From a virus: a stretch of DNA of 64,000 nucleotides. The stretch lies in IMG/VR virus record IMGVR_UViG_3300046694_000315, positions 32,001-96,000 of that record; one strand, written 5' to 3'. The notes beneath the pieces were generated by a model that ran no database searches, had not been told where the DNA came from, and was given only the letters and a program-made list of their open reading frames with translations. Shown here in pieces: positions 477 through 60,202 of the stretch (the stretch's first letter is position 1; each line of letters opens with the position of its first letter). Made by a program: the position numbers and the translations under genes.

Positions 477-1403
477 TCAGAAGGCTCCAGGAGCCACCTG
501 AAGGCACCGCAGACCGAGCAGGCGCCACATCTCCACGACCTGGTCACGGTCGTCGAGGACGAACCACACGTTGTAGAACGGCTCGATCTTCGCCCGGTAG
601 ATCTCCTCCTTGACGACCGAGTCCTTGCGCATGTCGTCTGGCGCCCGCATGTGCAGGTACGCCTCCCGCGTCCACTTGCCCACGTGCAGTTCCAGCCAGG
701 CCCGCGTCTGGTCGTAGCAGCAGCCGTCACGGCCGGACAGGAACACGATCTCCGCGCCGCTGTCCCGCAGGGTGTTCACCAGGTCGATGACCTCGCTGAT
801 CGGCTCGTCCTCGCCGACCCGGTCCCACTCGAACGGGCTGCGGCCGACCATCCGCGCCAGCGTGCCGTCGATGTCGACCAGGACCATGTTCGGCTTCGCC
901 GGGTCGTACGGGGGCGCCTCGGCAGGCTTCGGGGCCAGGTACTGGTTGTACATGTCCCGGATGACCTTCTCGCCGACGCTCCGATCCCGCTGGAGGTCAC
1001 GCTTGATGCAGGTATGAAGCGGCACGGCCGTGTGGTCGGAGACCTTGAACTCCGCACCGTGGTACGCGGCCAGCCGCCGCAGTTCCTTCTCGTGGTTGGG
1101 GTTGAGGTTGGTGTCGTCCACGATGACGCTCACGCCGTCGCCCAGGAACGCCTCGACGAGGGCGTTGCGGGCCCGCACGACCCGGCGTTCGTTCTTCCCG
1201 TGCCAGACGCTGTCGTGCAGCATCGTGCGCAGGTCGTCCTTGTTGATCCGGACCAGCGTGCCGGGCTGGGCCTTGGCCACGATCCGCTTCGCCTCGGTGC
1301 TCTTGCCGGAGCCGGGCAGTCCCTTGGTCATGGTCAGCGTCAGCATCGTCACGGGCTTCTCCTTGTTCTTCGGGCCGCAGCACCTGCACTTGTAGGTGCT
1401 CAC
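477..1403 (-). CDS. pseT: Polynucleotide 5'-kinase/3'-phosphatase (T4 PseT-like)
   Basis: P-loop GLPGSGKST, RINKDDLR, DDTN; C-terminal HAD DIDGTLA...SGR...DDR; GTG start overlaps upstream TGA. Confidence 0.92.
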   Translation of the reverse strand: MSTYKCRCCGPKNKEKPVTMLTLTMTKGLPGSGKSTEAKRIVAKAQPGTLVRINKDDLRTMLHDSVWHGKNERRVVRARNALVEAFLGDGVSVIVDDTNLNPNHEKELRRLAAYHGAEFKVSDHTAVPLHTCIKRDLQRDRSVGEKVIRDMYNQYLAPKPAEAPPYDPAKPNMVLVDIDGTLARMVGRSPFEWDRVGEDEPISEVIDLVNTLRDSGAEIVFLSGRDGCCYDQTRAWLELHVGKWTREAYLHMRAPDDMRKDSVVKEEIYRAKIEPFYNVWFVLDDRDQVVEMWRLLGLRCLQVAPGAF

Positions 1404-1699
1404 TGGCAGCACCCGTCGCAGCCGTGCAGGCCCTCGTAGGGGTGGTAGTCCTCGCCCTGGATCAGGCGCTTGTAGGCGAGGTCGTCCGGGTCGGGGTGAC
1501 CCACGCCGTGGGGACAGGTCCGCTCCATCAGCGCCCGGTCCATGCGGAAGTGCTGGGGGAAGGCGGCCATGGAGTGGGCGGAGGGGTTGTGAACGCAGCA
1601 GTGGCGGCCGATGCAGTCCTTGCGGGGGTGGGCGAGGATCTCCTCCCCGCCCACCAGCTCGGCCCGCTCGAACCACCCGCCGAAGTCGTCGGGCTCCAT
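1400..1699 (-). CDS. Cys/His-rich hypothetical phage protein
   Basis: MEPDDF...CIGRHCCVHNP...CPHGVGHPDPD...HGCDGCC; coupled to both neighbours. Confidence 0.75.
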   Translation of the reverse strand: MEPDDFGGWFERAELVGGEEILAHPRKDCIGRHCCVHNPSAHSMAAFPQHFRMDRALMERTCPHGVGHPDPDDLAYKRLIQGEDYHPYEGLHGCDGCCQ

Positions 1700-2799
1700 C
1701 AGGCAGCCGCCTCCGGGACCGACGCGAACGGGACCTCGTAGGCGGGCTTGACCCGCTTCCACACCCGCGAGGTGATGTCCTGGCCGCCGTACAGGCCGAA
1801 CAGGATGTCCCTGTAGGGGCTCTCGCAGGCCAGGAGGGCGAACTCCTTGCGGCGCTTCTGCGCGTCGTCCTCCGGCCTCACCAGGCGGCGCAGGATCCAG
1901 TCGAACTCCTCGCGTGCCTCCACCAGGGTGTCGGTGTAGGCCGCCTGCAAGGCGCTGACCTTCGCGCGGACCCAGTCGTAGAACTCGTCCGGGACGCTGT
2001 CGATGATCGCCTCGATCCCGTCGCCCTCGACCAGCGCCTCCCACAGGGTGAGCGTCGAGGTGTTCGTCAGGATGCGGTGCAGCCGCACGTACTCGTCGAA
2101 CTTGAACTTCACCCGCAGGTCGTGGCCGGGGAAGTGGACGACGAAGCCCTCCTGGTTCTCCTCCTGCGGCGCCGCCAGCACCTCGGAGAGGGACTCGAAG
2201 CCGACCGGCTGGTTGACCGGCCCCGGCCAGTCGTAGGGCCCCCACGGCAGCGAGCGACCGGTCTGGGTGTCGACCACCGCGAGCAGGACCAGGTCGTCCA
2301 GGCCCTTGTAGTCGACGACGATCCGGTTGGACGGGAAGACGATCTCGAAGAGGTACGTCAGACCCAGGATCGGCTCGAACGTCGGGTAGCGCGTCTCCAG
2401 GATCTTGTTCGCGTGCTGCGCCTGCGGGCTGGTGAAGGAGCCCCGCGTGGCGATGCGGAACTCCCCGGTATGAAGCAGGTAGCCGACGCCCAAGGAGCCG
2501 TCCCACTTCACGTACGTCTTGACCGGCTCGTTGATCAGTCGCGCCTGCTGGTCGGCGGGGATCTGCGACCAGTTGAAGAACTTCTCGAACGGCCGGGCCA
2601 CGACCTTCTCGGTGGTCGTGTCGATGATCAGACCCCGGGTCTTCTTGGTGACCTCGTTCCACTCGTTGTCGAACTGCGCCTTGTTCGTGTAGTTGAAGAT
2701 GGCCCGGCTGCCGTCGGGGTGGGTCTGGTGGCGGACGTAGCCCTTGGTGATGTTGTCGAGCAGGGCCTTCTCCGGAAGGACGTCGTACAGGTGCACCAT
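1699..2799 (-). CDS. RNA ligase (T4 Rnl1-like)
   Basis: Motif I KWDGSLG, ARPFEKFFN, ATRGSF, FEIV, EGFVV, KFK. Confidence 0.9.
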   Translation of the reverse strand: MVHLYDVLPEKALLDNITKGYVRHQTHPDGSRAIFNYTNKAQFDNEWNEVTKKTRGLIIDTTTEKVVARPFEKFFNWSQIPADQQARLINEPVKTYVKWDGSLGVGYLLHTGEFRIATRGSFTSPQAQHANKILETRYPTFEPILGLTYLFEIVFPSNRIVVDYKGLDDLVLLAVVDTQTGRSLPWGPYDWPGPVNQPVGFESLSEVLAAPQEENQEGFVVHFPGHDLRVKFKFDEYVRLHRILTNTSTLTLWEALVEGDGIEAIIDSVPDEFYDWVRAKVSALQAAYTDTLVEAREEFDWILRRLVRPEDDAQKRRKEFALLACESPYRDILFGLYGGQDITSRVWKRVKPAYEVPFASVPEAAA

Positions 2800-2823
2800 G
2801 TGTGCGCTCCTCGGTGGTGGTGG

Positions 2824-3045
2824 TCAGATGCGCTGGTCGATGGCGGCCACGACGCGCTGGGCGAAGTTCTCGTAGGCGCTGTCCGGCAGGTTCAGTCCGA
2901 ACCACTTCTTCGCCTCAAGGGCGACGATCTCGACGGCGGCCTCGCGCTGCTCTCCCTGGCGCTTGAGCCAGTCCTGGGCGGCGCTCTCGCGGGGGATGAC
3001 GAGGTGGCCGAGGTACATGGTGGGGCGGTCGTCCGTGGCGGTCAT
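2824..3045 (-). CDS. Hypothetical protein
   Basis: ORF with phage-like codon usage in operon. Confidence 0.65.
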   Translation of the reverse strand: MTATDDRPTMYLGHLVIPRESAAQDWLKRQGEQREAAVEIVALEAKKWFGLNLPDSAYENFAQRVVAAIDQRI

Positions 3046-4306: not shown

Positions 4307-4824
4307 CAGAACCAGTAGTCCTCAGACGGGTCGTCGCGGCCGTCGGTCTCCATGGCCTCGGCGGACTCCTCATACGTCGCCAGCGCCTCCTCCAGCGCCC
4401 TTCCCCACGTCTGTCCCTGGTCCTGCTCGACCTGAGCCACGGTGAGCAAGGCGAGCGTCTCGTTGTCGACCCTGAGATGCCCCTCCTCGACCAGGCTCTG
4501 GACCTCCGTGATGGTGCTGTCCGTGGCCGCCAGGTCCTCGTACGTCACGCCCTTGTAGGACAGCACGTAGCCGACCATGCAGGACGGCGCCTTGTCGGCC
4601 GGGCTGAAGTAGACGCACGGATTGGCGCCCGTCTCCGGGTCCAGGGGAGGCGCGTAGACGTAATCCTCCCCGCGCTCCTTCACTGCGCGGCCCAGCAGTT
4701 CCTTCGCCTCGTCCAGGGAGATCTCGACGGTGGCGGGCTTGGGCTTGGGGGTCTCGGCCTCCGGGGTATGAAGCGCGTCGTCGAGGGAGGGAACGGAGTC
4801 GATGATCTCGGTGAAGTTGAGCAT
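4306..4824 (-). CDS. Hypothetical protein
   Basis: MLNFTEII start; CVY..PSCMVG..QDQGQTWG pattern. Confidence 0.7.
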   Translation of the reverse strand: MLNFTEIIDSVPSLDDALHTPEAETPKPKPATVEISLDEAKELLGRAVKERGEDYVYAPPLDPETGANPCVYFSPADKAPSCMVGYVLSYKGVTYEDLAATDSTITEVQSLVEEGHLRVDNETLALLTVAQVEQDQGQTWGRALEEALATYEESAEAMETDGRDDPSEDYWF

Positions 4825-5936: not shown

Positions 5937-6206
5937 CTAGGTATGAAGCCGTTCACGCTCGTCGAGATAGTCCGAGACGCCGTTGTCCCAGAACGGACCG
6001 AACACGTACTGCGCCGTCGCGTCGTACAGCGCGCTGCTGGCGACCGCCCCGCCATGAGGCAGCAGCTCCTCCGCCTGGACCGAGTTCTGCCGACCGGTGA
6101 GCAACGCCACCAACGCGGCCTCGTCAGCCGACAGCCGGAGCGTCACCGCCTCGGGCGACCCGTCGTCTCGGAACTCGATGCTCTTGACCAAGGCCATCTC
6201 GGCCAT
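5937..6206 (-). CDS. Hypothetical protein
   Basis: GAGGAG RBS; ends ERLHT*. Confidence 0.7.
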   Translation of the reverse strand: MAEMALVKSIEFRDDGSPEAVTLRLSADEAALVALLTGRQNSVQAEELLPHGGAVASSALYDATAQYVFGPFWDNGVSDYLDERERLHT

Positions 6207-6299
6207 CTCCTCTTCTTGTGCTCCGTCCGGGACAGCTCCCGGTACCGGTCCAGTACTCGTTGCTCGAACTTGCTCAGGTGTCTCAGCGGCGCTCCCGCC

Positions 6300-6674
6300 T
6301 CATCGGTCGTTCAGGGAGATCTCGATGCTGTTGCCGGACTTCGGGTGGAGAAGCAGGCTGCTGCTGCCGTGGACCGTCAGCCGGTTGTCCTCTTGCAGCG
6401 TCACGTGGAAGTACGACCACCAGTCCGGGTGGCGCTCCGGCTTGTACCGGAACTCGATCGGCGTCCACTGGTCGACCGCGAGGCGGCGCCGGTTCACGCT
6501 GTGCGGGTCGATGACGACGGGGGCGTTCTCCGCGACGTCGTTGTTGAGCAAGGCCCGCACGGAGGCCAGCTCCTGCTCCAGCCGGATGATCCGCTCACCC
6601 CTCGCACGAAGTCGGTCCTTCACCCACTTCGGCAGGCGCTCGAACCTCGGGTCCTCTTCGATCGGCGTGTTCAC
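6300..6674 (-). CDS. Hypothetical protein
   Basis: AAGGAG RBS; N-terminal RLPKW coiled coil. Confidence 0.7.
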   Translation of the reverse strand: MNTPIEEDPRFERLPKWVKDRLRARGERIIRLEQELASVRALLNNDVAENAPVVIDPHSVNRRRLAVDQWTPIEFRYKPERHPDWWSYFHVTLQEDNRLTVHGSSSLLLHPKSGNSIEISLNDR

Positions 6675-6906
6675 GGCTGCTCCTTGTAACGTTGGGCCGG
6701 GCCCCGGTGGCCGCCCGCACTAGACCTGCGGACGGCCACCGGGGTTTCCTGCTAGCTGCGGTCGGCGCACTTCTCGCCGTTGGGGCACTCCTCGCGCGGG
6801 AAGCCATCCCCGCACAGGCTCGGGTCGATACCGATACCGGCGCCCAGCTCACCCAGTTCCAGCGGGCCTTCGTCCTGCACCCACCGGTCGGCGCTGTTCT
6901 CGTACA

Positions 6907-7164
6907 TCAGATGTCCGCCTTCTCCAGTCGCTCCCAGACCGGGCCCCAGCCGTCGCGGGTACCGTCCAGCAGGCCCGAGGCCTTGATGACGTAGTCCCGG
7001 TGCAGGGAGCGGTTCTCCAGGAGGCCATCCTCGGTGAGCACGTCCCCACGCCAGGCGCCGGACGACCCCTGCGTGACCGAGCGGATGATCCCCGGGGCCA
7101 GGGAGTGGTTGTACATGATCGAGACACGGTCGCCGACCCTGTACGGTGCGCGCTGCTGAGCCAT
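6907..7164 (-). CDS. Hypothetical protein
   Basis: AAGGAGG RBS, downstream of promoter. Confidence 0.7.
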   Translation of the reverse strand: MAQQRAPYRVGDRVSIMYNHSLAPGIIRSVTQGSSGAWRGDVLTEDGLLENRSLHRDYVIKASGLLDGTRDGWGPVWERLEKADI

Positions 7165-7205
7165 GGTTCCTCCTTCTGCGTTACTGCTTCCGAAGCAGTA
7201 AGAGG

Positions 7206-7235
7206 AATCTATCCGGCGCCACTACGTCTCGTCAA
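7206..7235 (-). promoter_or_regulatory. HrdB-type promoter
   Basis: TTGACG-N18-TAGATT. Confidence 0.6.
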
Positions 7236-7318
7236 GCCATATCGCCAACTGACTTTCCAAGCATGAAGAAGGCCCCCACCCGGTCTCCCAGGAAGGGGCC
7301 TACGACAGCGCTACGTAG

Positions 7319-7483
7319 CTACTCAGTTCGCGTGATCGTGATCCTTGAGGTGACGTCGTCGCTCAGCAGGGACTCCACGGTCTGCGCCACCTGCTCCGGA
7401 GCCTCGACCTCGATCTGGGACGACTGCGCCCGCTGCTGCCCCGGCTTCAGGGGGTGCTGGTACTTGACTACGTACTTCGACAC
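7319..7483 (-). CDS. Small hypothetical protein
   Basis: AGGAGG RBS; MSKYVVKYQHP... Confidence 0.55.
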   Translation of the reverse strand: MSKYVVKYQHPLKPGQQRAQSSQIEVEAPEQVAQTVESLLSDDVTSRITITRTE

Positions 7484-7484
7484 G

Positions 7485-7916
7485 TCATACCCCTCCTACT
7501 AGTGCCTGCACCACCTTGTTCAGCGCACGCTGCGCCGACCGCTTCCCTGACTCGATGCTGGAGCACGTGAGGAACCGCTCGTCGTCTCCCCCACCGAGGA
7601 ACAGGGAGTAGTTGCACGAGTCCATGGCTGAACTCTCGTATGTGTACCTGAAGACGTCAGCCACCTTCCGGTCGCCGATGTAGCCGACCCACAGTTCCCC
7701 CTTGGGGTGCGCCTCCTGGCGCCACTCGATCGACTGCGCCTTGATGGGGGGCTTCTTCTTGGGCTCCGCTGGATGCCCCCTGCGGACCGCCTCAACCCGA
7801 GTGCATCCCTGATTGTCGATGGCGTGCTGAAGGTCAGCACCAATGCCCCGGTCGTCGTAAACCTCGATCACCGTGGGGCGTGGCTGCTCTGGCTCCCAGT
7901 AACGCAGCTTCCACAT
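7485..7916 (-). CDS. Hypothetical protein
   Basis: ORF in tight operon. Confidence 0.65.
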   Translation of the reverse strand: MWKLRYWEPEQPRPTVIEVYDDRGIGADLQHAIDNQGCTRVEAVRRGHPAEPKKKPPIKAQSIEWRQEAHPKGELWVGYIGDRKVADVFRYTYESSAMDSCNYSLFLGGGDDERFLTCSSIESGKRSAQRALNKVVQALVGGV

Positions 7917-7917
7917 G

Positions 7918-8535
7918 TCAGTTCTCCCTCGTGGCCAGCTCGGCCGCGCGCTTGTCGAGGTCCTTCTCCAGGTTCTCGGCGACCAGCCGAAGGGTCCGCT
8001 CGATGTCCTCGAAGCCCTGCTTAGGCGTGGCCTCCGCCGCCTTGGCCGCCGCAGCGGCGGACTCCCGCAGGCGCTCGATGGCCCACTCGGTGCCGTCCAG
8101 GTTCTCGCGGATCAGCAGCACGTTCAGCGACATGTCGAAGGAGGCCCGCTGCGCGCTACGTCGGACCCTCCGGCTGATCTCTACCGAGGACACCGGCTTC
8201 TCCGCGCCCCCGTTGGCGCGGTCGGTCCACTCCTTGGCGATCTCGCGCACCCACTCCGGCGCCACGCTGTCCGGCCCCAGCGGCTCCATGAAGGTGACGG
8301 TGTAGTCCCGCTTCGTGGCAACCTGTCCGTCCCGGACCTTGGGGCCTACCACACCTACAGACGACACCTCCCACACGCCCGTCTCCGTGTGCGGGAACAG
8401 GCCCACGCCCATAGCAGTCGGGCGCACCGTCCCGAGGCTGGGAACCTCCGGGTTCGACGTGTCCGGCGCTCCCGTCACGTCCAGCGAGATCTGCCAGTTC
8501 GAGTGATCCCGGACGGTGGACTCCACAGCGCTCAT
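7918..8535 (-). CDS. Hypothetical protein
   Basis: ORF in tight operon. Confidence 0.65.
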   Translation of the reverse strand: MSAVESTVRDHSNWQISLDVTGAPDTSNPEVPSLGTVRPTAMGVGLFPHTETGVWEVSSVGVVGPKVRDGQVATKRDYTVTFMEPLGPDSVAPEWVREIAKEWTDRANGGAEKPVSSVEISRRVRRSAQRASFDMSLNVLLIRENLDGTEWAIERLRESAAAAAKAAEATPKQGFEDIERTLRLVAENLEKDLDKRAAELATREN

Positions 8536-8954
8536 CAGTCGTCTTCCTCGTCTTCCTCGTTCATCACGTGCATGTAGTCAATCGCGTCCTGGTCACCGGC
8601 CGCAGCGGCTTTGGCCCACCAGACGCGCGCCACGTCGTCGCCGTGCAGGACCTCCACCAGCTCGGCGATGCGGCGCAACTGACGCGGCTCCGGACCCTCG
8701 ACCGCCAGCAGCTCGGCCAACTCGGGCTCCGTAGTCCGCCCCGGATTTTCAAATGCCTGATATTCGCCGGCGAGTTCCCCCTCGATTCGCCGTCGCGAGT
8801 CCACGATGTCCTGCGGCGTGTAGCCGAAGTTCAGGCGGGCCCGGCTGAGCAGCTCATCGATGGTCGGGGCCGGGCCCGGCCGGGGCCGGGAAGTGTGGGC
8901 GCACTCCCGGCAGCCTTCCTCGGGTTCCGGGTGTTCGTCAGCATGAGAGGTCAC
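8535..8954 (-). CDS. Hypothetical protein
   Basis: GTG start overlapping upstream TGA. Confidence 0.55.
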   Translation of the reverse strand: MTSHADEHPEPEEGCRECAHTSRPRPGPAPTIDELLSRARLNFGYTPQDIVDSRRRIEGELAGEYQAFENPGRTTEPELAELLAVEGPEPRQLRRIAELVEVLHGDDVARVWWAKAAAAGDQDAIDYMHVMNEEDEEDD

Positions 8955-9057
8955 GACCCGGCGCTCCGCGCCTCCGCCGAACCCTTGAAGAAGGACTCGT
9001 AGCTCTCGAACGCGCGCGAGACCCCGGCCTCCTCGTCGCGGTACCACTTCGGGGCGC

Positions 9058-9303
9058 TCATCCCTGCGCCCTCCACTTCCGGATCTGGCGCTGGATCTTA
9101 TGGACAGCCGAGGAGTTCGCGTCCCGCGTCATAACGATGTTTCGATCGCCGTCCACGGTCCGGCGCTCCAGTCGCTGCCAGACCTCCTCCCAGTCGATGG
9201 TTCCTGTGGGGAAGTAGCCCGTAATGATGTCCTGGACGTATTCCATAACTCGGGGGGTGACGTCGCCCGCCTCGACGATCCGGTGATCCTCGGTCTCGTT
9301 CAC
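9058..9303 (-). CDS. Hypothetical protein
   Basis: Coupled ORF. Confidence 0.6.
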   Translation of the reverse strand: MNETEDHRIVEAGDVTPRVMEYVQDIITGYFPTGTIDWEEVWQRLERRTVDGDRNIVMTRDANSSAVHKIQRQIRKWRAQG

Positions 9304-9794
9304 TTCTCCCCCTCGCGCAGGTGCTCCGGCAGTTCCAGGCTCCAGCCCAACACGTCCGGGTGCAGCATGCGGGCCGCCTCCGTGAACACCGCACGGCTGG
9401 TCGTCCCACCCTTGGGGGCCGGGGCCTTCGGCGCACGGTCCGCGTTCTTCTGCATGAGTTCGGCGTCCACCCGGGCCTGGTCCCTGCGGGTGTCCGCGAC
9501 GACCGAGTCCAGCAGCCGGATCATCTCGGCCGCCGTGTCCTCGGGATGCCCCACCCGGATCCGCTGCACCAGCATCTCGTAGTCGTTCATCTTCGTCTCC
9601 CCCTCCAGGAGTGCGCGGACCCGCTCAGCCAGCAGCTTGTCCTGCTCCGCCGCAGGCGCCTTGATGTCGTAGCCCGATCCCGGGCACTCGCCGAATCCCT
9701 CGTACTGGTGCTTGCGCAGCACCGACTTCTTAGGACCAACGAGCAGTGGCCGTTCCTGACACAGGTAGTACGGGCATGGCCAGCGCTCCTTCAC
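9300..9794 (-). CDS. Hypothetical protein with N-terminal Zn-binding-like motif
   Basis: CPYYLC...RKH...CPGSG. Confidence 0.6.
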   Translation of the reverse strand: MKERWPCPYYLCQERPLLVGPKKSVLRKHQYEGFGECPGSGYDIKAPAAEQDKLLAERVRALLEGETKMNDYEMLVQRIRVGHPEDTAAEMIRLLDSVVADTRRDQARVDAELMQKNADRAPKAPAPKGGTTSRAVFTEAARMLHPDVLGWSLELPEHLREGEK

Positions 9795-10174
9795 TTGATC
9801 TCCCCGCGCTCGGCCCGCTCCATCACGTCGAGCAGCGCCTCCAGGACCGCGATCGGCTTCGGCCCGCCGCGCCACACCTCAATACCGTGACGCCGCAGTG
9901 CCTCCTCCAGGGACTCGCGGGACTTCTCGGCCTCGTACGCCTCGCGGGTCATCACCTGGGTGTGGCCGTAGTTGTCGGCGCGCATCCCGTTCTCGATCCG
10001 GTACGTCAGCGTCTTGCCTTCGGGGCTACGCTCGCTCAGCGGGATGTGCAACAGCGTGCGGCCGACCTTCACGACGGTCACCTCCTCGGGCGTCTGCTCC
10101 TTCTCGCGGGCGCCTCCCATCCGCGTCAGCAGCAGCAGCGTGTCCCCGACCTTCACACCCTCAAGACCCGGCAT
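9791..10174 (-). CDS. Hypothetical protein
   Basis: GGGGAG RBS; VTVVKVGRT beta-barrel-like pattern. Confidence 0.7.
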   Translation of the reverse strand: MPGLEGVKVGDTLLLLTRMGGAREKEQTPEEVTVVKVGRTLLHIPLSERSPEGKTLTYRIENGMRADNYGHTQVMTREAYEAEKSRESLEEALRRHGIEVWRGGPKPIAVLEALLDVMERAERGEIK

Positions 10175-10210
10175 CTCAACTCCCCTTCCGTCGTTCTCAA
10201 TTACGGGATA

Positions 10211-10239
10211 AGACTATGCGCTACCCGACCCCATGTCAA
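10211..10239 (-). promoter_or_regulatory. HrdB-type promoter
   Basis: TTGACA-N17-TAGTCT. Confidence 0.7.
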
Positions 10240-10297
10240 GCACTTTCATACACTCGCTTGCGTGGCAGGAACCGCTGGTTCCGCTTACTCTCAAATC

Positions 10298-10510: not shown

Positions 10511-10514
10511 TCCG

Positions 10515-11618: not shown

Positions 11619-11636
11619 GGCCCTGGTGGGGTTAGC

Positions 11637-12047: not shown

Positions 12048-12086
12048 TCGGGGTGCCTCCTGATGCGGTGCGGCTGGTGTGGTCGG

Positions 12087-12419: not shown

Positions 12420-12426
12420 GGGGGTT

Positions 12427-12458: not shown

Positions 12459-12463
12459 GGGGG

Positions 12464-15008: not shown

Positions 15009-15012
15009 GAGG

Positions 15013-50171: not shown

Positions 50172-50549
50172 TTAGTACGTAACCTCGTCGACTCGCGAGG
50201 GGACCGACTGGCCCAACCGGGTGGTGCGGCGGTCGGCGTACCGGCGGGCGTCGGCGTCCGTCTGGTCGCGGCGCACGTCCGTCTCTGCAACGTCCTGGTA
50301 GACGGTGACGACGCGCTTCTCGGCCGGGTCCACGATGGCCACGAGGTCCCCCCGAACGTGCCGAACCTGTCCAGGAACGCGGCCCGAGGGGTAGGTATGA
50401 AGCGGCTCGTTGGCCGCGAGAAGAACGTCCGCGCTGGTCCAGCCCTTGGCTGCGGCCTGCTGCTGCGCGTGGTGGGTCAGCCGGTAGGTCGGCGCGTCGG
50501 TGACTGGCGCGGACCAGGTGATGCCGAGGCATTCTGCGATGGTGGCCAT
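50172..50549 (-). CDS. DUF4258-like (BECR/RelE-fold) protein
   Basis: YRLTHHAQQQ..ADV..P..VVTVY; own promoter. Confidence 0.55.
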   Translation of the reverse strand: MATIAECLGITWSAPVTDAPTYRLTHHAQQQAAAKGWTSADVLLAANEPLHTYPSGRVPGQVRHVRGDLVAIVDPAEKRVVTVYQDVAETDVRRDQTDADARRYADRRTTRLGQSVPSRVDEVTY

Positions 50550-52494: not shown

Positions 52495-52781
52495 TGGGAG
52501 TACTGCCGATCGAACTGCCCCCGTGTGCGCGGTCGGCGGGCGAAGGGGACGCCCGGGGTGTAGTGCCCCTCCTGGATGTGGTCGGGGTTGGCGCACATCC
52601 GCCGGGTACACGCGCGGTGCTTCTGCCCGGCGCCTCCGGTGATGAACGACAGCAGGCTCTGGCCCCGGTAGGTAGGCCGCGTCGCGGTCGACTGGAAGAT
52701 CAGGCATGCGGAGTCCGGGTCGGGCTCGACGCGGTCCCAGAAGGCCTGTCCCAGGTGCTCGTAGCCTTCAGGCGCCAGCAT
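52488..52781 (-). CDS. Degenerate HNH-like protein
   Basis: FWDRV..ACLIF..HRAC..CANPDH. Confidence 0.5.
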   Translation of the reverse strand: MLAPEGYEHLGQAFWDRVEPDPDSACLIFQSTATRPTYRGQSLLSFITGGAGQKHRACTRRMCANPDHIQEGHYTPGVPFARRPRTRGQFDRQYSQC

Positions 52782-52965
52782 TCGCGGCCTCCTGGTGGGT
52801 CATGTGGAAGCCACGGCACCTGGGGCACTCGTAGACGCGCACCGGCAGGAACTCGCGGGTGCTGTCCTTCTTGCGCTGGATCCGCTGCATGTCGAGCAGC
52901 GCGGAGACGCGGTCGGGGAAGCGGCGCTTGCCGCAGGTATGAAGTCGGCGCTTGTTGTAGGGCAT
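52768..52965 (-). CDS. Small Zn-ribbon protein
   Basis: CGKRRF..RVYECPRCRGFHMT. Confidence 0.7.
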   Translation of the reverse strand: MPYNKRRLHTCGKRRFPDRVSALLDMQRIQRKKDSTREFLPVRVYECPRCRGFHMTHQEAANAGA

Positions 52966-52975: not shown

Positions 52976-53932
52976 TTAGAACCGTGCGAGGACGGATGAG
53001 TAGGCGTTGTCGACGGCGTAGGTGATCTCGCTGTCGGTCATGTCTCCGGGGTCCTTGGCGGACGTGTGGGAGTAGTCGAGGAAGCGCAGGGTCAGGCCTC
53101 GTCCGACCCACTCCTTGCGCAGCCGGGCGCAGGCCTCGACTCCGGCCTTGTCGTTGTCCAGGGCGATGACGACGGTGTCGAAGTGGTCGCGGATCAGGGA
53201 CATCTGGGCGTCGGAGACTCCGGCGCCGAAGGCGGCCAGCCCGGCCTTGTATCCCGCCGCGCGCAGCCGGGCCACGTCGAGGGGCGACTCGACCAGGATG
53301 GCCAGGTCGTCCTCGTAGGTATGAAGCCCGAAGAGGGTCTTGGACTTCGTCATGGAGTTGGGCCGGTTGCGGAAGTAGCGGGAGTTCTTCTCCTGCCAGC
53401 CCCAGAGCATGCCGGTGTCGGGGCAGCGCACCGGGACGATCCACATGTCGCGCTTGGGATCCCAGAGCACTCCGGCGGCCTCGGCGTCCTGGGGGAAGAA
53501 CATGCGCTCTGCGCAAGCGGCCAGCGGCGGGGTCACGTACAGGGCCAGCGAGGCCTCATTGATGTGCTTGGTCGTGTCGACCTGGCTCGGCTGCTTCTTC
53601 GCCAGGAACTTCTTCACCCGCTCGATGCCGCCGCGCCCGCGCACCCACACCGCCGCGTCGCTGTACGGGATGTCGAGCACGTCCTTGACCAGGACGACGA
53701 ACGGGCCCCGGTAGCCGCAGGAGAAGCAGTTGAAATAGCCAGCGTCGGAGTTGATAGAGAAGGATGGGTGCTTGTCTTTCTTTCCCGTCCGCGCCTCGTG
53801 CATGGGGCACGGCATATGAATCTCGTCGCCGTTCACCTTGTAGTCGAGACCGATCTCGTCCAAGCAGGCGGTGACGTTTCCCGGAATGGGGGTGCCTACT
53901 GCGTCCCAGCCCTTGGCTTTCGCTCGGACCAT
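52976..53932 (-). CDS. dnaG: DNA primase (CHC2 Zn finger plus Toprim)
   Basis: CPMH..PSFS..CFSC; VESPLD; LDND.AG. Confidence 0.92.
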   Translation of the reverse strand: MVRAKAKGWDAVGTPIPGNVTACLDEIGLDYKVNGDEIHMPCPMHEARTGKKDKHPSFSINSDAGYFNCFSCGYRGPFVVLVKDVLDIPYSDAAVWVRGRGGIERVKKFLAKKQPSQVDTTKHINEASLALYVTPPLAACAERMFFPQDAEAAGVLWDPKRDMWIVPVRCPDTGMLWGWQEKNSRYFRNRPNSMTKSKTLFGLHTYEDDLAILVESPLDVARLRAAGYKAGLAAFGAGVSDAQMSLIRDHFDTVVIALDNDKAGVEACARLRKEWVGRGLTLRFLDYSHTSAKDPGDMTDSEITYAVDNAYSSVLARF

Positions 53933-54180: not shown

Positions 54181-55423
54181 CGGTGTTCTCCTCGTCCATG
54201 GCGAAGGGGTCCTCGTTGAGTTCCTCGAACTTGCCGGTCTCCCAGTCCCACTGGCAGTAGGTCTCCAGGGGCGGGCAGTTACGGGCCAGGACGACCTTGA
54301 TCTTGTTGATGTTCGCGTCCTCCGTGGACTCGACACCGAGGATCACGTCGGAGTCCTGGGCGAAGGAGGACGAATATCCGATGGAGTCAGACGTGATGCC
54401 CTTCTTCTTGTTCATCTTCCATTCCAGGACCTGCGTGGAAATGACGATCGGGAGTTGCAGGTTCTTCGCCATGCGCTTGAATCCTCGGGTGAGGTTGGTA
54501 AGCGCCTGGCTGGATCCCTGAGCCTCGCCGAGTTCGTCCTGCATCATGTAGATGCCGTCCACGAATACGATCGTCGGCTTGATGTGGTCGATCTTCGACT
54601 GCACACCGGTAAGCGTCGTCGCATTCATGGAGTCCGAGGAAAGGAAGAACGAAGGCATAGCCTCCAGTTCCCGCAAGGCCCTTTCGAGTTTGTCCCACTC
54701 GGCCTTCTTGAGCGTTCCATTCCTCAGCCGGGCGTGGGAAATCCCCGCGCGAATGGCGTCGAAGCGTTCCTCCTGCTCCTCGTTGCTCATCTCGAAGCCG
54801 ATGAACAGCGGGCGCTCGCCGTGCAGGTGGGCGGCCATGGCGGCCAGCAGGAGCAGCGTCGACTTACCGGCCTTCGGCGGGCCGACGAAGGTGACCAACT
54901 GCTCCTTCTGGAGGCCCTGGGTGGCCCTGTCGATCGTCGTAAAGCCGGTGGGGATCCCCCGGAGCCCGTCGGGCAGGTCCTTGAGCGTGAGGTACCGCGC
55001 GAGGCGCTGCTGGCCGGTCTCCGTCAGGTCAGTGTCGCGGGCGTTGGGTACGGCCGAGGCGATGTCCGCCAGGGTCTTGTGCAGGGCCGCCATCGCGGCC
55101 AGCGCGTCGCCCTCTTCGTGTGCGTCGACCGAGTCGGCCAGGCCCTGCTCCAGCAGGGCCAAAGTATGAAGTTCCCGCAGCCGGTCGGTCAGCACGTTCA
55201 TGCTGTCCTCGACCTTGACGAACTTGTAGGTGGGGAAGTCCGTCTTGATCGTGGCCAGGGACGGCACCTCACCGTAGGTGCCCTTGTGCCGCAGGATCGC
55301 CTTGAAGACGGCCCGGTTGTCCGGGTCGCCGAAGAAGTCGGGGGTGATGCCCGCGTCCGCGACGTCAGTCAGGTCCTTGTCCTGGATGACGCGGGAGACG
55401 AGCAGCCGCTCGAAGTCCGCCAC
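54158..55423 (-). CDS. dnaB: DnaB-like replicative helicase
   Basis: GIPTGF, GPPKAGKS, FEMS, VDG, QDSD. Confidence 0.92.
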   Translation of the reverse strand: MADFERLLVSRVIQDKDLTDVADAGITPDFFGDPDNRAVFKAILRHKGTYGEVPSLATIKTDFPTYKFVKVEDSMNVLTDRLRELHTLALLEQGLADSVDAHEEGDALAAMAALHKTLADIASAVPNARDTDLTETGQQRLARYLTLKDLPDGLRGIPTGFTTIDRATQGLQKEQLVTFVGPPKAGKSTLLLLAAMAAHLHGERPLFIGFEMSNEEQEERFDAIRAGISHARLRNGTLKKAEWDKLERALRELEAMPSFFLSSDSMNATTLTGVQSKIDHIKPTIVFVDGIYMMQDELGEAQGSSQALTNLTRGFKRMAKNLQLPIVISTQVLEWKMNKKKGITSDSIGYSSSFAQDSDVILGVESTEDANINKIKVVLARNCPPLETYCQWDWETGKFEELNEDPFAMDEENTDGYVGAF

Positions 55424-55866: not shown

Positions 55867-56111
55867 CAGGTTCGCTCCGCGTCCGCGCGGAGCCAGATAT
55901 GAAGCCGGTTGCCCCGGACCTCGCGCCGGTCGCTGTAGCGGAAGGGCCGGAAGCCGAGACTCTTGGCGCGGGCCCAGGCCAGGCGCTTCAGCATGCTGAC
56001 GGTGTGCTGCTGCTCGGGGAACCTGCCGGTGATCGTCGACAGGATCTCGTCTTTGTAGACAACTGACAAAATCTCGTCCTCGAAGGGGAGGACCATCTGC
56101 TCATGCTGCAC
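55866..56111 (-). CDS. Hypothetical protein
   Basis: Coupled ORF; N-terminal QMVLPF. Confidence 0.55.
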   Translation of the reverse strand: MQHEQMVLPFEDEILSVVYKDEILSTITGRFPEQQHTVSMLKRLAWARAKSLGFRPFRYSDRREVRGNRLHIWLRADAERT

Positions 56112-56760
56112 GGCGGTCTCCTCCGACGATCGTGAGGTGGGTGAAGGCCTCCTGGATGAAGGAGCCCATCGTGGGGTTGTAGACGGCGCCCCACTCCCGG
56201 GGCGGGAGGTTCGAGGTGACCAGGGTGGGCAGGGCCTCGCGGTGACGCTGGCGCAGGAGGGTGTCGAGCAGGCCTTCGGCGTAGCCGGTCTTGGTGCGGT
56301 GCTCCTTGCCGACGTCGTCCAGGAGGAGGACGGGGGCCTTCTCGGCCGCCACGATCTTGTCCTGGATCTCCCACCAGCGGGCGACGGCTTCGGGCTCGTG
56401 CCGGTCCTGGAGGCCCATCTTCTCGATGGAGTCCTTCACGAAGTCGGCGTAGGCCAGCCAGTGGACCGGCAGGCGCTTCTCGAAGTAGACCTCCAGCAGG
56501 GTGGCCGTGGCCAGGGAGGTCTTGCCGGTGCCGGGAGGGCCGACGAACAGCAGGCCCTTGCCGATCTGGGACCAGTCCTCGGGGTACTGGTCGAGCGGGC
56601 GCTTGTCGGTGACGTAGTGGTCGCGCAGGTTGTCGAGCCAGGTCTGGCAGGCGGCGCGCGGCGCGGCGTCCGCCACGGTATGAAGCCGCAGGTGGCGGTA
56701 GTGCGCCGGGATGCCGTACTCCTTCAGGCGCAGGGCGTGGACCCGGGGGTCTGTCGCCAT
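56101..56760 (-). CDS. DnaC/IstB-like AAA+ helicase loader
   Basis: GPPGTGKT, LLLDDVGKE, R..PTLVTSN. Confidence 0.88.
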   Translation of the reverse strand: MATDPRVHALRLKEYGIPAHYRHLRLHTVADAAPRAACQTWLDNLRDHYVTDKRPLDQYPEDWSQIGKGLLFVGPPGTGKTSLATATLLEVYFEKRLPVHWLAYADFVKDSIEKMGLQDRHEPEAVARWWEIQDKIVAAEKAPVLLLDDVGKEHRTKTGYAEGLLDTLLRQRHREALPTLVTSNLPPREWGAVYNPTMGSFIQEAFTHLTIVGGDRRAA

Positions 56761-56882: not shown

Positions 56883-57866
56883 TCAGGACCAGTAGTCCTC
56901 GTTGAACCGGTTGTCCTCCATCGCACTGACGGCCTTGCCCAGTCGCTGGGTCAGCAGCCCACGGGCGGCCAGGAAGTCCTTCCAGGCGACCACGTTGTCC
57001 GAGCGCTGCCAGGACGACGACCAGTAGGTGATGATCATCTGGCGGATCTCGTCCCGCTCCGTGCCCTGTGCCATCCACCGGCCGAAGTTGCCGGTGAGGG
57101 CGGAGAGGTTGGTCGTGCCGGGTACCGGGTGGCCCACCTCCTGGGCCCTCTTGTCGAAGAACAGGGCCAGTTCCTCTGACGGCCGCGTGGAGCGCTTCCT
57201 GGGAGGTCGCTGGACCGGAGGGGCCGGGATGTCCTGCGAGGCCGGGAGATCGCCGTAGAGACTGAACGACGGGGCGCTCTCCTCCAGGGACTGGGAGACC
57301 ACGAACGCCGGGTCGAGTTCCCTCTCCGCCTGAGCCTGCTCTTCGGCCACCTGCTTCCGGGACTTCTTCCGGCCGCCACGCTTGGGTGCCGCGACGGCCC
57401 CCCAGCCCTTGGCTCCTGGCCTGGTCACAGGTTCGTCTTGCAGGGCGTCGCCCTGGAGATACGAAGTATCTCTATTACTTCTAGTAGGGATATTGGGGTT
57501 GGGTGAAAACTTCGACACAGGGGGTGCAGATTCTGCACTGCTCAGGGGTGCAGAATCTGCACTCGGGGAGGTCACCGACCACTCCGCCACCGGCTTGATA
57601 CGCCGGACCACGGACTTGTAGCGCAGGGCTTCCACGGGCACCTCGTCGTCCGGCACGTGCTCGACGACCCCCTGCTCCTCCAGGGTCGCCAGCGAGGCGT
57701 ACGCCTGCCGCTTGGAGACGCGCGCCTTGCCCGCGATGGTGTCGGCGGACTCCCAGCACATGCGGTGGGTGTCGTTGGCGGCGTCGGCCAGCGCGAGCAG
57801 CACCAGGCGGGTGGCCAGGCGCGTGTCGGAGTACGAGAACACCTCGGACATGATCAGGATGCTCAC
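56883..57866 (-). CDS. Replication initiator with N-terminal winged HTH
   Basis: RLVLLALADAAN..CWES..IA...S.RQ; directly upstream of loader. Confidence 0.75.
   Translation of the reverse strand: MSILIMSEVFSYSDTRLATRLVLLALADAANDTHRMCWESADTIAGKARVSKRQAYASLATLEEQGVVEHVPDDEVPVEALRYKSVVRRIKPVAEWSVTSPSADSAPLSSAESAPPVSKFSPNPNIPTRSNRDTSYLQGDALQDEPVTRPGAKGWGAVAAPKRGGRKKSRKQVAEEQAQAERELDPAFVVSQSLEESAPSFSLYGDLPASQDIPAPPVQRPPRKRSTRPSEELALFFDKRAQEVGHPVPGTTNLSALTGNFGRWMAQGTERDEIRQMIITYWSSSWQRSDNVVAWKDFLAARGLLTQRLGKAVSAMEDNRFNEDYWS
57521..57563. repeat. Two palindromic direct repeats inside initiator gene (iteron-like)
   Basis: GGGGTGCAGATTCTGCACT (57521-57539) and GGGGTGCAGAATCTGCACT (57545-57563) next to an AT-rich tract. 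Confidence 0.7.
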
Positions 57867-57961
57867 TCGGCGACTCCGAGGAAGCGATAAGTATGAAGCG
57901 ATATCCCCATGCTAGGGTCTCTCTCATCTCGGGGTTTGTGGTGGGCCTCGGGGTGTGGTGG

Positions 57962-58026: not shown

Positions 58027-59265
58027 TCACTCCGAGTCGAAGTCGAGGCCCTTCTCCTCGATCTCCGCCCGCGTCAACTGGACGACCTTCTGTCCGGCCG
58101 GGATCCGGCCACGGCCGCGACGGCTGTAGTTGCCCTCGTCGTCGACCAGGTAGGCGAACGTCTTGGTCTCGTCACGCGGACGGCCACGGCGACGGCGCGG
58201 GGTCGACTCCTCTTCCTCCTGCTCCTCGGCGGCCGGAGCCTCCGAGGCCTTCTCCTGCTGGGCGGCGTCGCCCAGGGTATGAAGCGCCTTTCGGAGCAGT
58301 TCGGTCAGCGGGCGCTCGCGCACGTCGGCCTGGTTGATGACCGCGTTGCGCTCGTCCTCCAGTCGGAAGGCGTTGTAGGCACCCTCCAAAGCGGCGCGCA
58401 CGAGGAGCAGGTCGATCTCCGTGTCCGGGACCGCCTTGGCGGCCTCCTGCTGCGCCTTGTGCTGCGCTCGGGCGACCTCCTGCTCCAGGCTCTCCTGGTT
58501 CTGGATGTCCTCCTCGACCGGGTCTGCCTCCGGCTCGGGCTCCGGCTGGGCCTTGCGGCGACCGCGACGCTTCGGCGCCTCCGGCTCGGGCTCCGGCTGC
58601 GGCTCCGGCTGCGCTTCCGGCTCGTCCTCCGTCAGCGGCTCCTCTTCCACCTCGACCGGCTCCGGCTCGGCACGGCGACCGCGACGGCGGCCACGCTTCG
58701 GCGCCTCCGGCTCGGGCTCCGGCTCGGGCTCGGGAGCGGCCTCGGCCTCGGGCTCGGGCTCGGGCTCGGGCTCGCTGGCGAAGGAGATGTCGTCGAGTCC
58801 GGCCGTGAGGTCCTTCGCCTTGATCCCGGCGGCCTCGGCCGCGTCCAGAAGGAGTTCGGCTTCCTCGCTGCCCTCGTCGCCCCACAGGAGGATGACGTGG
58901 GCGTCGCCGACGCTGTCGGCCTTCTTCAGCAGGTCGACGATCCCGGCGGTGACGTTGGCCGTGCGCACGACCTCCTCGGCGTCCTTGAGGATGGAGTCCA
59001 CGGCCCGGCTCTTCTCGCCGTCGGTGACCGCGATGAACGGGATGTCCGCGTACTCCGACCACTCCAGCACGGCCTCCAGGCCGTCGGACAGGTGCTTCTT
59101 GGTGATCGGCAGGATGAGGGTGACTTCCCGCTCGGTGGGCTCGGGGAAGCCGTCGGCGTCGTCCTCGCCCAGGCCGACGAAGTCGTTCAGCAGAGCCTTG
59201 ACGTTGTCGATGTCGGTGTCGGCGGAGCCAGCGAAGGCGAGGGCGATGGGGTCGGTGCTGCTCAA
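58027..59265 (-). CDS. Acidic protein with EP repeats and AT-hook/Lsr2-like motifs
   Basis: [25 protein letters not shown]; (EP)n tracts. Confidence 0.75.
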
Positions 59266-59386
59266 GTCTGCTCCAGGTGTGGTGTGTTTGCCGCCTTGAT
59301 CGGCGACGAGGAAGACGTTACCGGTTACGGCTTCTAAAAGCAAGAAATCCCCGCTTGTCTAGCGGAGATTTCAAGTGGCTTGACAA

Positions 59387-59671
59387 TCAGGGCAGGTCGG
59401 GGACCCTCCGGCCGGTGGACGGATGCCTGCGGGGAAGTCTCAGCGGCGGTGCCTCCGTCCCCCCGCGCACCTGGAGATGCAGCAGCGCCACCGCGCCCGC
59501 AGCCGCCACGGCGGCCAGCCACGGGACAGGCAGCCGCTGGGCCTCATAGGCCAGGCCGACCACAGCGAGCGGCTGGAGCCCGGCCGGAAGGGAGAAGGGC
59601 AGGACGACGAGCAGCCACTCCCACGCCGTGAACGTGGCGAGGGCGATCAGCGCGAAACGCAACCAGTCCAT
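59387..59671 (-). CDS. Small membrane protein
   Basis: Hydrophobic segments. Confidence 0.6.
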   Translation of the reverse strand: MDWLRFALIALATFTAWEWLLVVLPFSLPAGLQPLAVVGLAYEAQRLPVPWLAAVAAAGAVALLHLQVRGGTEAPPLRLPRRHPSTGRRVPDLP

Positions 59672-59674
59672 GGC

Positions 59675-60202
59675 TCAGACCGCCGACGCGGTGAGGTCGA
59701 TGGACTTCGACAAGGCGGCAGCCGGGCCCGGGACCTCGGCCACGTCCGCGACTGCCTGTGGCAGGGTGCGCCGCAGGACGGACTCCAGGGCCGTGACGAT
59801 CTGCTGGACGGCCTCTGCGCTCAAGGCGTTGCTGCTGGCCGGGACGACGGCGCTCTCCTCGACGTACTCCTCGACGGTCCCGGACGGGATATGAAGCCGG
59901 ATCTCCGCCTCCGCGATCAGCGTGTTCTGGAGCCGGGCGAACCAGGAGTACTTCTTCAGCAGCGAGTGGTAGAAGGTCGTGCCGGACACCCACGCCAGGA
60001 ACGCGGCGACGACGGCGGGCGCCCAGTAGAAGTGCTGGGGGTGCGCCTGGTAGACGGCCCAGAATCCGGTGGCAACCGCTAGGACGGCATGCGCCGCTCC
60101 CTTGACTGTGCTGTTGGTGGACGGCTTGGAGAACAGAGCGACCACGGCCGGTAGGCCCAGGCCGACGACGAGGGAGGACACGTCGGCGTAGTTGGTGAAC
60201 AT
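59675..60202 (-). CDS. Holin-like membrane protein
   Basis: About 3 N-terminal TM segments; after tail genes. Confidence 0.55.
   Translation of the reverse strand: MFTNYADVSSLVVGLGLPAVVALFSKPSTNSTVKGAAHAVLAVATGFWAVYQAHPQHFYWAPAVVAAFLAWVSGTTFYHSLLKKYSWFARLQNTLIAEAEIRLHIPSGTVEEYVEESAVVPASSNALSAEAVQQIVTALESVLRRTLPQAVADVAEVPGPAAALSKSIDLTASAV

Follow-up and report, generated by a model that had tools for sequence, protein, structure and literature searches.

A nine-letter word recurs in about 45 copies in a temperate Streptomyces phage and its relatives, which raises the question of whether it is read in DNA, in RNA or in the course of translation. In the window, by which we mean the whole 64,000-nt stretch analyzed here, GGTATGAAG occurs 24 times on the + strand and never on the − strand (0.2 expected), and TATGAAG 32 times and never (1.4 expected), in agreement with the counts and coordinates of an earlier note on this DNA. 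The complete phage record (106,046 bp) gives 31:0 and 43:1 (+:−), respectively; its GC content is 65.5%, not about 68% as had been estimated. This enrichment survives comparison with codon-preserving shuffles: called genes contain 38 sense copies, versus 2.3 after a synonymous-codon shuffle and 0.7 after a codon-order shuffle. Since the genes all lie on the − strand, the element reads R-CTT-CAT-AYC on the sense strand. An ordinary CTG-CAC-ACC is also present, at 28134-28142, where it had been reported. The word forms an A/U-rich island within G/C-rich messages, is enriched in non-structural genes and is frequent at ORF 5' ends and in leaders. Within the replication module, copies are spaced more evenly than random (CV 0.62, P=0.006) and no gap between them is below 382 bp (P=0.0003).

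Word polarity tracks gene direction and translation, not the DNA strand. In each of four genomes, a single full-consensus copy lies on the opposite strand, inside a small, divergently transcribed ORF next to the integrase, where it takes the sense direction and frame 0 of that ORF; the ORFs concerned fall into two unrelated protein families. Because the opposite-strand copies adopt the sense and frame of their ORFs, and no member copy is found in untranslated DNA of this genome or of five related ones, we conclude that the word follows translation. The orientation of Chi and KOPS is set by the replichore or the DNA strand, and both tolerate several frames. Like them, the phage word is a strongly over-represented asymmetric oligomer with a strand bias; unlike them, it flips with gene direction and is missing from an 18-kb same-strand block. 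Polarity by gene direction thus argues against the Chi- or KOPS-like, packaging or ejection roles suggested earlier, and against nicks of the T5/tf type: such sites in T5, tf and phiKMV keep to one strand, and here every one of the four genomes has a consensus copy on the other.

All true copies share one reading frame and are read, in rare codons, as Leu-His-Thr, Leu-His-Ile or Leu-His-Met. Crude gene calls place 35 of 37 genic copies in frame 0; the remaining two, together with copies described as intergenic, turn out to lie in frame-0 ORFs with start codons, and frame 0 also holds for every copy in five related genomes. Codon-position base composition would favor frame 1 for this word, and 29 CTTCAT words in the xxC-TTC-ATx frame stand a single synonymous change from the core, none of which is used. 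The flanks favor rare codons (GGG, CGA or GGA before, TTG after): nucleotide-level selection acts on them through these codons, and ordinary tRNAs cannot explain such preferences. Judging by orthologues, in which Q-H-T, I-Q-I and L-Q-V correspond to L-H-T/I where the word sits, proteins have been altered to accommodate it, in agreement with the earlier note. The NrdJ example given there, with ARLKTFGG taken as the usual segment, is not supported: the His of both LHT sites aligns with a His of the Lactobacillus leichmannii enzyme. Phages with the other allele do carry Asn at 44497.

This other allele is found in close relatives, which have the same sites; in a whole group of them, CTTAATACC (Leu-Asn-Thr) stands at the orthologous positions. 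The switch between CTTCATACC and CTTAATACC is concerted (13 C-type and 23 A-type loci, where C-type denotes the His form, CAU, and A-type the Asn form, AAU). Between genomes G000 and G006, 30 of 34 alignable sites are kept, with flanking synonymous sites 75% identical. Lineage-specific gains are in frame 0 as well. C-type phages have made them at codons that natively specify His, A-type phages at those for Asn, and amino-acid changes frequently accompany them; some ten C-type-specific sites are all in frame 0. C-type genomes hold relic A-type copies, which suggests that the A allele is ancestral. In this allele neither of the remaining frames could be used in any case (TAA stop; TTA-ATA); the C allele is stop-free in every frame. 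Because the A allele is limited to frame 0 and is perhaps ancestral, part of the frame lock could be inherited from coding constraint on a DNA site. The lock by itself does not prove translation-level action. The phage is temperate: integrases are present, and a prophage copy resides in the cultured strain Streptomyces sp. NPDC002088. The copies in the window, with the block that lacks them, are as follows.

1011..1019, − strand: CTT-CAT-ACC (LHT), codon 220 of the polynucleotide kinase/phosphatase gene 477-1676
2467..2475, − strand: LHT, codon 109 of the T4 RnlA-type RNA ligase gene 1699-2799
4765..4773, − strand: LHT in ORF 4306-4965; the homologous gene of A-type relatives begins M-T-L-N-T
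5940..5948, − strand: last three codons (…ERLHT, then stop) of frame-0 ORF 5940-6206
6000..24400, no strand assigned: member-free block of ~18 kb, small genes on the same strand; ~7 copies expected at genome mean density
24454..24462, − strand: in-frame copy, ORF 24166-24564
25974..25982, − strand: variant CTT-CAT-ATG (LHM) in the PHROG-887 'queuine tRNA-ribosyltransferase'-like gene 24723-26261; LNM in A-type phages
26618..26626, − strand: copy in gene 26288-27136; plain CTG-CAC-ACC in A-type phages
28443..28451, − strand: variant CTT-CAT-ATC (LHI), gene 27765-28628
30028..30036, − strand: CTT-CAT-ACT, codon 17 of gene 29695-30084
31033..31041, − strand: in-frame copy, ORF 30613-31230
31650..31658, − strand: copy in gene 31311-32498
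32915..32923, − strand: C-terminal tail, gene 32882-34141; a tandem pair of copies in A-type G004
36263..36271, − strand: C-terminal tail of gene 36233-36835
38200..38208, − strand: copy in gene 38059-38742
40979..40987, − strand: resolvase-like gene 40934-41278 (PHROG 2002)
41423..41431, − strand: RecA C-terminal tail (…DGLHTQAA, then stop)
43654..43662, − strand: NrdJ codon 477, conserved His; A-type phages keep CTG-CAC, without the motif
44497..44505, − strand: NrdJ codon 196 (ARLHTFGG); ARLNTFGG in A-type phages
47950..47958, − strand: codon 14 of the DNA polymerase I gene 46018-47997
48735..48743, − strand: copy in gene 48078-48890
49477..49485, − strand: MerR-HTH gene 49126-49587
50394..50402, − strand: gene 50172-50549; CAG-CAC-ACC in A-type phages
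53318..53326, − strand: DnaG-type primase gene 52976-53980; CTG-CAC-ACC in A-type phages
55163..55171, − strand: CTT-CAT-ACT, DnaB-like helicase gene 54158-55741; CAG-CAC-ACC in A-type phages
55896..55904, − strand: LHI in gene 55866-56111
56677..56685, − strand: in-frame copy, ORF 56104-57078
58276..58284, − strand: copy in gene 58027-59343
59888..59896, − strand: LHI in gene 59675-60202

Three copies had been described as intergenic and taken as a sign of a purely nucleotide-level DNA signal. That at 14908..14916 (− strand), GTTATGAAG or CTTCATAAC, is not a member: it has no in-frame start, and A-type genomes show the same CTTCATAAC. The other two, at 42610 and 57890, lie in frame in leader ORFs of 10 and 15 codons with a Shine-Dalgarno sequence (SD) and an ATG, so that these copies too are translated and share the frame of all other members. 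A third ORF resembles these leaders through its A-type equivalent.

42592..42624, − strand: recA leader ORF, 10 codons, member copy 42610-42618
52768..52965, − strand: 65-codon ORF, member copy at codons 8-10 (52936-52944)
57863..57910, − strand: replication-initiator leader ORF, 15 codons, member copy 57890-57898

The recA leader follows an AGGAG and reads ATG CGA CTT CAT ACC TAC GGG GGC CCC TGT TGA (MRLHTYGGPC); its stop overlaps the recA start (TTGA; TTG at 42595 or GTG at 42589). Relatives of the C type likewise have 10 codons and an NTGA overlap (TTGA or GTGA in eight distinct C-type sequences), and in A-type phages the leader is fused in frame to RecA (M-[APS]-L-N-T…). The initiator leader, ATG GGG ATA TCG CTT CAT ACT … GAG TGA (MGISLHTYRFLGVAE), ends over the initiator GTG (GTGA, 57866). 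It is kept in A-type phages as MSSRLNI…, GTGA or ATGA overlaps are found in both alleles, and in L028 leader and ATGA overlap are retained before a non-homologous replacement initiator gene. The 65-codon ORF overlaps with its end the ATG (52781) of the next ORF; its counterpart in A-type phages is a leader of 14 codons (MTRLNTCPRQGDHR; L065:12946-12990) whose stop overlaps a start as ATGA. Leaders composed of SD, ATG, word and NTGA overlap are thus kept in lineages C1, C2 and A even though their sequences have changed, as expected of leader ORFs with translational coupling. The his/thr/leu attenuators and erm leaders exert leader-peptide control with translational coupling; they resemble the phage leaders in being short ORFs, with their own SD and special codons, whose ends touch or overlap the start codon that follows. 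Unlike them, the phage word also occurs some 40 times in ordinary genes, and is defined at the nucleotide level, not by repeated codons for a single amino acid or by an arrest peptide.

Our search for a reader yielded no factor. Among the relatives compared, no DNA-binding protein, nor any protein of another kind, covaries cleanly with the allele. Of the candidate readers proposed earlier, SpoVS and MerR-HTH are confirmed as families, the DUF4258-like (gene 50172-50549; no Pfam or PHROG match) and ParB-like (27765; no match) assignments are not, and none is linked to the motif. Six C-type contigs (G000, L056-L060) carry a class II tRNA(GUG) that is missing from four A-type tRNA clusters (L061-L064), with tRNA-Asn found in both allele types; however, we reject this phage tRNA-His as the reader, as it is absent from the complete C-type genome G006. 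The same absence separates the system from the bldA/TTA regulon of Streptomyces, in which one codon depends on one tRNA. The likeness lies in the host genus, in rare A/T-ending codons within a defined gene set, and in gene translation made dependent on a trans-acting translation component; the phage unit is instead a fixed three-codon word with flanking bases and two alleles, for which the tested phage tRNA is dispensable. To our knowledge, word and flanks together (~11 nt) exceed anything read by a known ribosome-dependent factor. Late genes show no depletion of NAU codons, which counts against a further specific translational model.

We may hypothesize, tentatively and at slightly less than an even chance, that this is a translated checkpoint word, read by a putative allele-specific factor and gating replication and recombination genes. 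The element would be a codon-phased sense-strand word, R-CUU-(C or A)AU-AYC, read on the mRNA during translation. Selection would have placed one copy per ~1.4 kb in replication, recombination, nucleotide-metabolism and RNA-repair ORFs; for key genes requiring a 5' copy (recA, the replication initiator and one more ORF) it would have placed the word in a short leader whose stop overlaps the gene. The control point would be a ribosome with the word in its decoding sites, where the putative trans-acting factor may stall or abort translation, or cut the message, so that the whole non-structural regulon is gated post-transcriptionally. Such gating might keep leaky lytic genes silent in a lysogen, or silence an incoming phage with the same allele during superinfection; alternatively, it might serve late shut-off of word-bearing genes. 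On this view the His-type CAU and Asn-type AAU alleles would define specificities, much as stoperator types do between heteroimmune phages. A bolder version is possible but doubtful: phage-wide translational operators at which the putative factor arrests or aborts ribosomes on the three-codon word, silencing about 45 ORFs and the three leader-gated genes post-transcriptionally, with His- and Asn-type words as immunity-like specificity groups. Among the roles listed in the earlier note, an mRNA tag, read during translation, fits best.

The main rival is another of those roles. Stoperators of Cluster A mycobacteriophages (sites of L5 gp71-type repressors) are 13-mers that occupy promoters and the short gaps between genes, where a known repressor binds them as duplex DNA (PMC9283540, PMC6550527). 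A phage repressor might likewise bind an asymmetric duplex word of ~11 bp, block RNA polymerase elongation in one orientation and silence prophage lytic genes, with alleles as immunity types and the single frame as a by-product of coding constraint. We regard this as unlikely, if far from negligible. The phage is temperate; its word, like Cluster A stoperators, comes in dozens of short asymmetric copies whose orientation tracks transcription (43:1, with some 40 co-oriented sites and opposite copies in divergent genes), and the two also resemble each other in how many sites there are, how these are spaced and how the allele switches between close relatives (PMC9283540). A protein footprint would also suit the flank preferences, and the frame could be explained if the A allele, in which only frame 0 avoids TAA and TTA-ATA, is ancestral. 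However, stoperators occupy short intergenic spaces (PMC9283540), and here no member is found in untranslated DNA, where its cost would be nil: the phage word always lies inside translated ORFs, in one frame, even at the price of protein changes. The ten or so C-type-specific sites are all in frame 0 although the C allele is stop-free and many other-frame sites are one step away, conserved and coupled leader ORFs are dedicated to carrying the word, and no cleanly covarying DNA-binding protein takes the place of the known repressor.

T4 RegB acts on early and middle messages at GGAG, and a sequence-specific endoribonuclease or RNA-binding protein could similarly inactivate early and middle phage messages without a ribosome. 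The constant sense orientation, the A/U-rich character of the word, its frequency at ORF 5' ends and in leaders (positions at which cleavage would disable the message), the bias to non-structural genes and the presence of RNA repair genes (PNK, RNA ligase) are in line with this. We nevertheless find it improbable: such a reader would ignore frame and work equally in untranslated leaders, neither of which fits the data, and no small RNA complementary to the word was found. A target of DNA chemistry, whether for programmed nicking of one strand (as in T5, tf and phiKMV) or for base modification, for instance by the PHROG-887 transglycosylase-like protein, is very improbable. The motif is asymmetric and dispersed, that gene is present and the host has no Pfam TGT; however, neither Pfam TGT models nor solved TGT or DpdA sequences match the gene, divergent-gene copies lie on the other strand, the variable position on the G-bearing strand reads G or T depending on the allele, and frame lock and leader ORFs are left unexplained. 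Equally hard to credit is a programmed ribosomal frameshift or hop. CUU-N heptamers are classic +1 shifty sites (prfB CUU-UGA-C, Ty1 CUU-AGG-C), and the core heptamer CUU-NAU-A has CUU in the shifty-codon position, a C or A at position 4, the base with which position 34 of a slipped tRNA-Leu would pair, and an AUA conserved in the +1 frame. Yet in all genes frame 0 reads through into conserved protein sequence, no alternative product is conserved, and +1/−1 stop distances are no shorter than at control positions.

The word is thus a real, selected and polar cis-element system, as the earlier note had proposed, and apparently an undescribed one. We infer tentatively that it acts at translation, by stalling or cleavage, and for a regulatory purpose. 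If the bolder reading as translational operators holds true, the word system would be the translational counterpart of stoperators.

On recounting the 64-kb window, we obtained the copy numbers and one-strand bias reported in the earlier note: the + strand has 24 copies of GGTATGAAG (0.2 expected) and 32 of its core TATGAAG (1.4 expected), the − strand none of either. Over the whole phage record (G000), a complete IMG/VR entry of 106,046 bp and 65.5% GC in which the window spans bases 32001-96000, the strand counts are 43:1 for the core and 31:0 for the 9-mer. In a GC3-based gene call, practically all genes fall on the − strand; in gene sense, the word is therefore CTTCATA(CC). A codon-preserving shuffle, as suggested in the earlier note, leaves a clear excess: called genes contain 38 sense copies, versus 2.3 after synonymous codons are shuffled within genes and 0.7 after codon order is shuffled.

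Thirty-five of the 37 copies within called genes share one frame, CTT-CAT-ACC/ACT/ATC/ATG, encoding Leu-His-Thr/Ile/Met, and every copy in five further full genomes is in this frame 0. CTT and CAT are both rare codons in the phage, and the pair CTT-CAT is seen 37 times where codon frequencies predict 0.5. Convenience of coding cannot account for this frame. Judged by codon position, base composition would favour another; of the 29 CTTCAT words that lie in the xxC-TTC-ATx frame, each a single synonymous step away from the core, none is used (0/29); and the codons required by alternative frames (ATA 34, TCA 42) are rarer by a factor of only about two than the CTT and CAT codons that lie outside the word. 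Recoding of CAT is ruled out: both word sites in NrdJ align with a His of the L. leichmannii enzyme, hence CAT is read as His.

A search with the PolA gene yielded 39 related viral loci. In thirteen of them, CTTCATAYC is present at about 0.7 per kb, always on the sense strand. Another 23 lack this word and have CTTAATAYC instead, with equal density and polarity. We refer to these as C-type (His, CAT) and A-type (Asn, AAT); the five further genomes include two of the former (G005, G006) and three of the latter (G003, G004, G008). No such word is present in two loci at 67% PolA identity (L041, L044) or in cultured BRock-like Streptomyces phages (52% PolA identity). Site-by-site comparison shows that most positions are orthologous between types and differ by one base, His versus Asn. 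Where a site is private to one type, the other type encodes the native amino acid by ordinary codons: A-type counterparts of C-private sites have, for example, CTG-CAC-ACC or CAG-CAC-ACC, and C-type counterparts of A-private ones have CTG-AAC-NNN; some private sites arise through amino-acid change (Q-H-T, T-H-T, I-Q-I and L-Q-V to L-H-T/I). The word is kept at 30 of the 34 sites that can be aligned between G000 and G006, a more distant C-type genome, and flanking synonymous sites are only 75% identical. The word extends to about 11 nt, with a weak but clear preference for a preceding purine and a following T. These flank preferences are satisfied by rare codons (GGG, CGA, GGA and TTG, for example), and selection therefore acts on nucleotides. 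Relic A-type copies in C-type genomes hint that A is the older allele.

The earlier note had placed three copies between genes; on closer annotation, two of them lie in leader ORFs. In our own gene call, two copies appeared off-frame and six 'intergenic' because the calling was crude: all but one belong to ORFs that have a start codon and are read there in frame 0. The exception, CTTCATAAC at 14908-14916, was rejected as a family member: it has no in-frame start and is unchanged in relatives of the other allele. This sequence, the same in C-type and A-type genomes, occupies an apparently untranslated spot upstream of gene 13835-14812.

Several copies reside in short leader ORFs, including the following:

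Window 42592-42624, − strand: recA leader ORF of 10 codons with its own SD, ATG CGA CTT CAT ACC TAC GGG GGC CCC TGT TGA

In eight distinct C-type sequences, among them members of the divergent clade C2, the leader stays ten codons long and its stop overlaps the recA start as NTGA, while the leader sequence itself varies; in A-type phages the leader is joined in frame to RecA (M-[APS]-L-N-T…). The replication initiator is preceded by an ORF of 15 codons, and the stop of this ORF overlaps the start of the initiator gene (GTGA). This leader is conserved in both alleles and is retained, with an ATGA overlap, even before a non-homologous initiator gene. A third leader, ahead of ORF 52488-52781, is 65 codons long in G000; its A-type version has only 14, with an ATGA overlap. 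Ribosomes must therefore translate the word before, or en route to, these genes. Under automatic gene calls, enrichment near ORF ends is not significant (3 and 4 versus 1.8 expected); when starts are assigned by hand, about 8 of 44 copies are at most 10 codons from a start codon, versus about 2 expected.

The neighborhood of the recA leader has other features. Just upstream lies a perfect 12-bp inverted repeat, ACCGGTAGTTCC … GGAACTACCGGT, with a 17-nt spacer (window 42669-42709); a second, overlapping inverted-repeat pair is found at 54117-54134. Between nrdJ and recA, a 127-aa endonuclease-like gene (PHROG 452; 42743-43126, − strand) has no counterpart in five related genomes compared and is for this reason probably a mobile homing-type insert. 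At G005 sense 103679-103930, an unrelated gene has gained an N-terminal extension, M-A-L-H-T-Y-G-G, nearly the same cassette as the M-R-L-H-T-Y-G-G-P-C of the recA leader. Judging from this resemblance, we suggest that a start region carrying the word can move between genes.

Does orientation follow transcription or the DNA strand? Four genomes each contain exactly one full-consensus copy on the opposite strand. Each time, the copy belongs to a small ORF divergent from the integrase gene, in the ORF's own sense, in frame 0 and a few codons past the start, and the ORFs belong to two unrelated protein families. As these copies follow the sense of the divergent ORF, gene direction is separated from DNA strand, and polarity tracks genes. 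This opposes the Chi/KOPS-like, packaging or ejection, and one-strand nick roles entertained in the earlier note.

The word is dense in the modules for replication, recombination, nucleotide metabolism and RNA repair, with few copies in structural genes; its spacing in the replication module is more even than random. An 18-kb block of small same-strand genes of unknown function (window 6000-24400) has no copies and a higher GC3 (0.90), and may represent a differently regulated gene class. The phage is temperate. A C-type relative (L090, 93% PolA identity) is an apparently complete prophage of Streptomyces sp. NPDC002088 (NZ_JBEOXO010000018.1, about 78-183 kb), within a 203-kb contig; it holds 39 copies in about 104 kb, versus 33 in the remaining 10.6 Mb. 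This prophage thus indicates the host genus, Streptomyces, and supplies an experimental system. A SpoVS-family protein (window 35403-35705, − strand; Pfam E 2e-21) shows 87-95% conservation among phages of either allele, and a 'sporulation protein' is also encoded by BRock in this module.

We looked for a factor that could read the word. One candidate was an odd class II tRNA:

G000 28973-29058, − strand, 2.9 kb before the window; also L006:2253-2337: class II tRNA(GUG), Rfam tRNA 48 bits

This 86-nt tRNA combines a Leu-like long variable arm with a His anticodon (GTG) and G-1:C73, the bacterial His identity pair, and resembles the neighboring phage tRNA-Leu(CAA). It first appeared to track the C allele, six C-type contigs matching or carrying its sequence (G000, L056-L060) and four A-type tRNA clusters lacking it, but the complete C-type genome G006 does not have it, which rules it out as the reader; among these phages it is limited to clade C1. 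The tRNA-Asn is intact in both types. A complementary small RNA was likewise rejected: outside genes, with G:U pairs allowed, there is no conserved anti-word and none that switches with the allele. Queuosine control of NAU codons does not fit, NAU not being depleted in structural (late) genes. A 512-aa protein (window 24723-26261, − strand) matches PHROG 887, 'queuine tRNA-ribosyltransferase' (E 2e-75), and has no Pfam TGT, NCBIfam or PDB sequence match; the Streptomyces host genome has no Pfam TGT. As a possible link to queuosine, this protein, which may act on DNA or on tRNA, is a loose lead. Several small proteins group C1 and C2 against A, and the genomes are mosaic; none makes a compelling reader by covariation with the allele. 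Gene 4306-4965, considered as C-specific, is also present in A-type genomes, its apparent absence being a gene-calling artefact.

What the data establish is an element in sense orientation, phased to the codons and conserved in position, which has two concerted alleles and coupled leaders dedicated to it. We lean, at somewhat short of even confidence, towards a word read on the mRNA during translation, as a checkpoint. An allele-specific factor would stall or abort ribosomes at the word, or cut the message, thereby gating a non-structural regulon, as a translational analogue of stoperators. A stoperator-like DNA site is the main rival, in our judgment a less likely one; the word is dispersed, oriented and allele-switching as stoperators are. 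In the A allele, TAA and TTA-ATA close the other frames; with A possibly ancestral, the frame lock could thus be inherited in part. However, some ten C-type-specific gains are all in frame 0, and the leader ORFs are conserved. The word also avoids untranslated DNA, where we find no member copy and where placement would be cost-free for a DNA site; intergenic placement is a defining feature of stoperators, those of mycobacteriophages sitting in untranslated intergenic DNA (PMC9283540).

We consider it less likely that the word is a ribosome-independent RNA site, a target for DNA modification or nicks, or a frameshift site. A frameshift product finds no support in the +1 and -1 frames, which are not shorter after the word than at control positions, and the TAA in the A-type -1 frame is not common to the C type. 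In its working the word comes closest, besides stoperators, to rare-codon and leader-peptide control, but it has no dedicated tRNA, unlike the former, and no repeated codons or arrest peptide, unlike the latter. A literature search with four 9-mers returned unrelated papers only, and we came across no account of a comparable multi-codon word, dispersed and in frame.

Reading in translation would add a level of control not seen before in phages: an operator that is dispersed and phased to codons, with specificities that can be exchanged, acting over the replication and recombination genes of a temperate Streptomyces phage. It would further demonstrate that selection is able to rewrite dozens of proteins, including conserved ribonucleotide reductase positions, to carry a regulatory word. 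If it is a DNA site instead, the stoperator principle extends to another group of phages in an unusual guise, with all sites inside genes and in a single frame. The two alleles amount to a natural swap experiment, and the prophage of the cultured strain NPDC002088 makes the question directly testable. A short, portable translation-gating word could become a tool for Streptomyces engineering.
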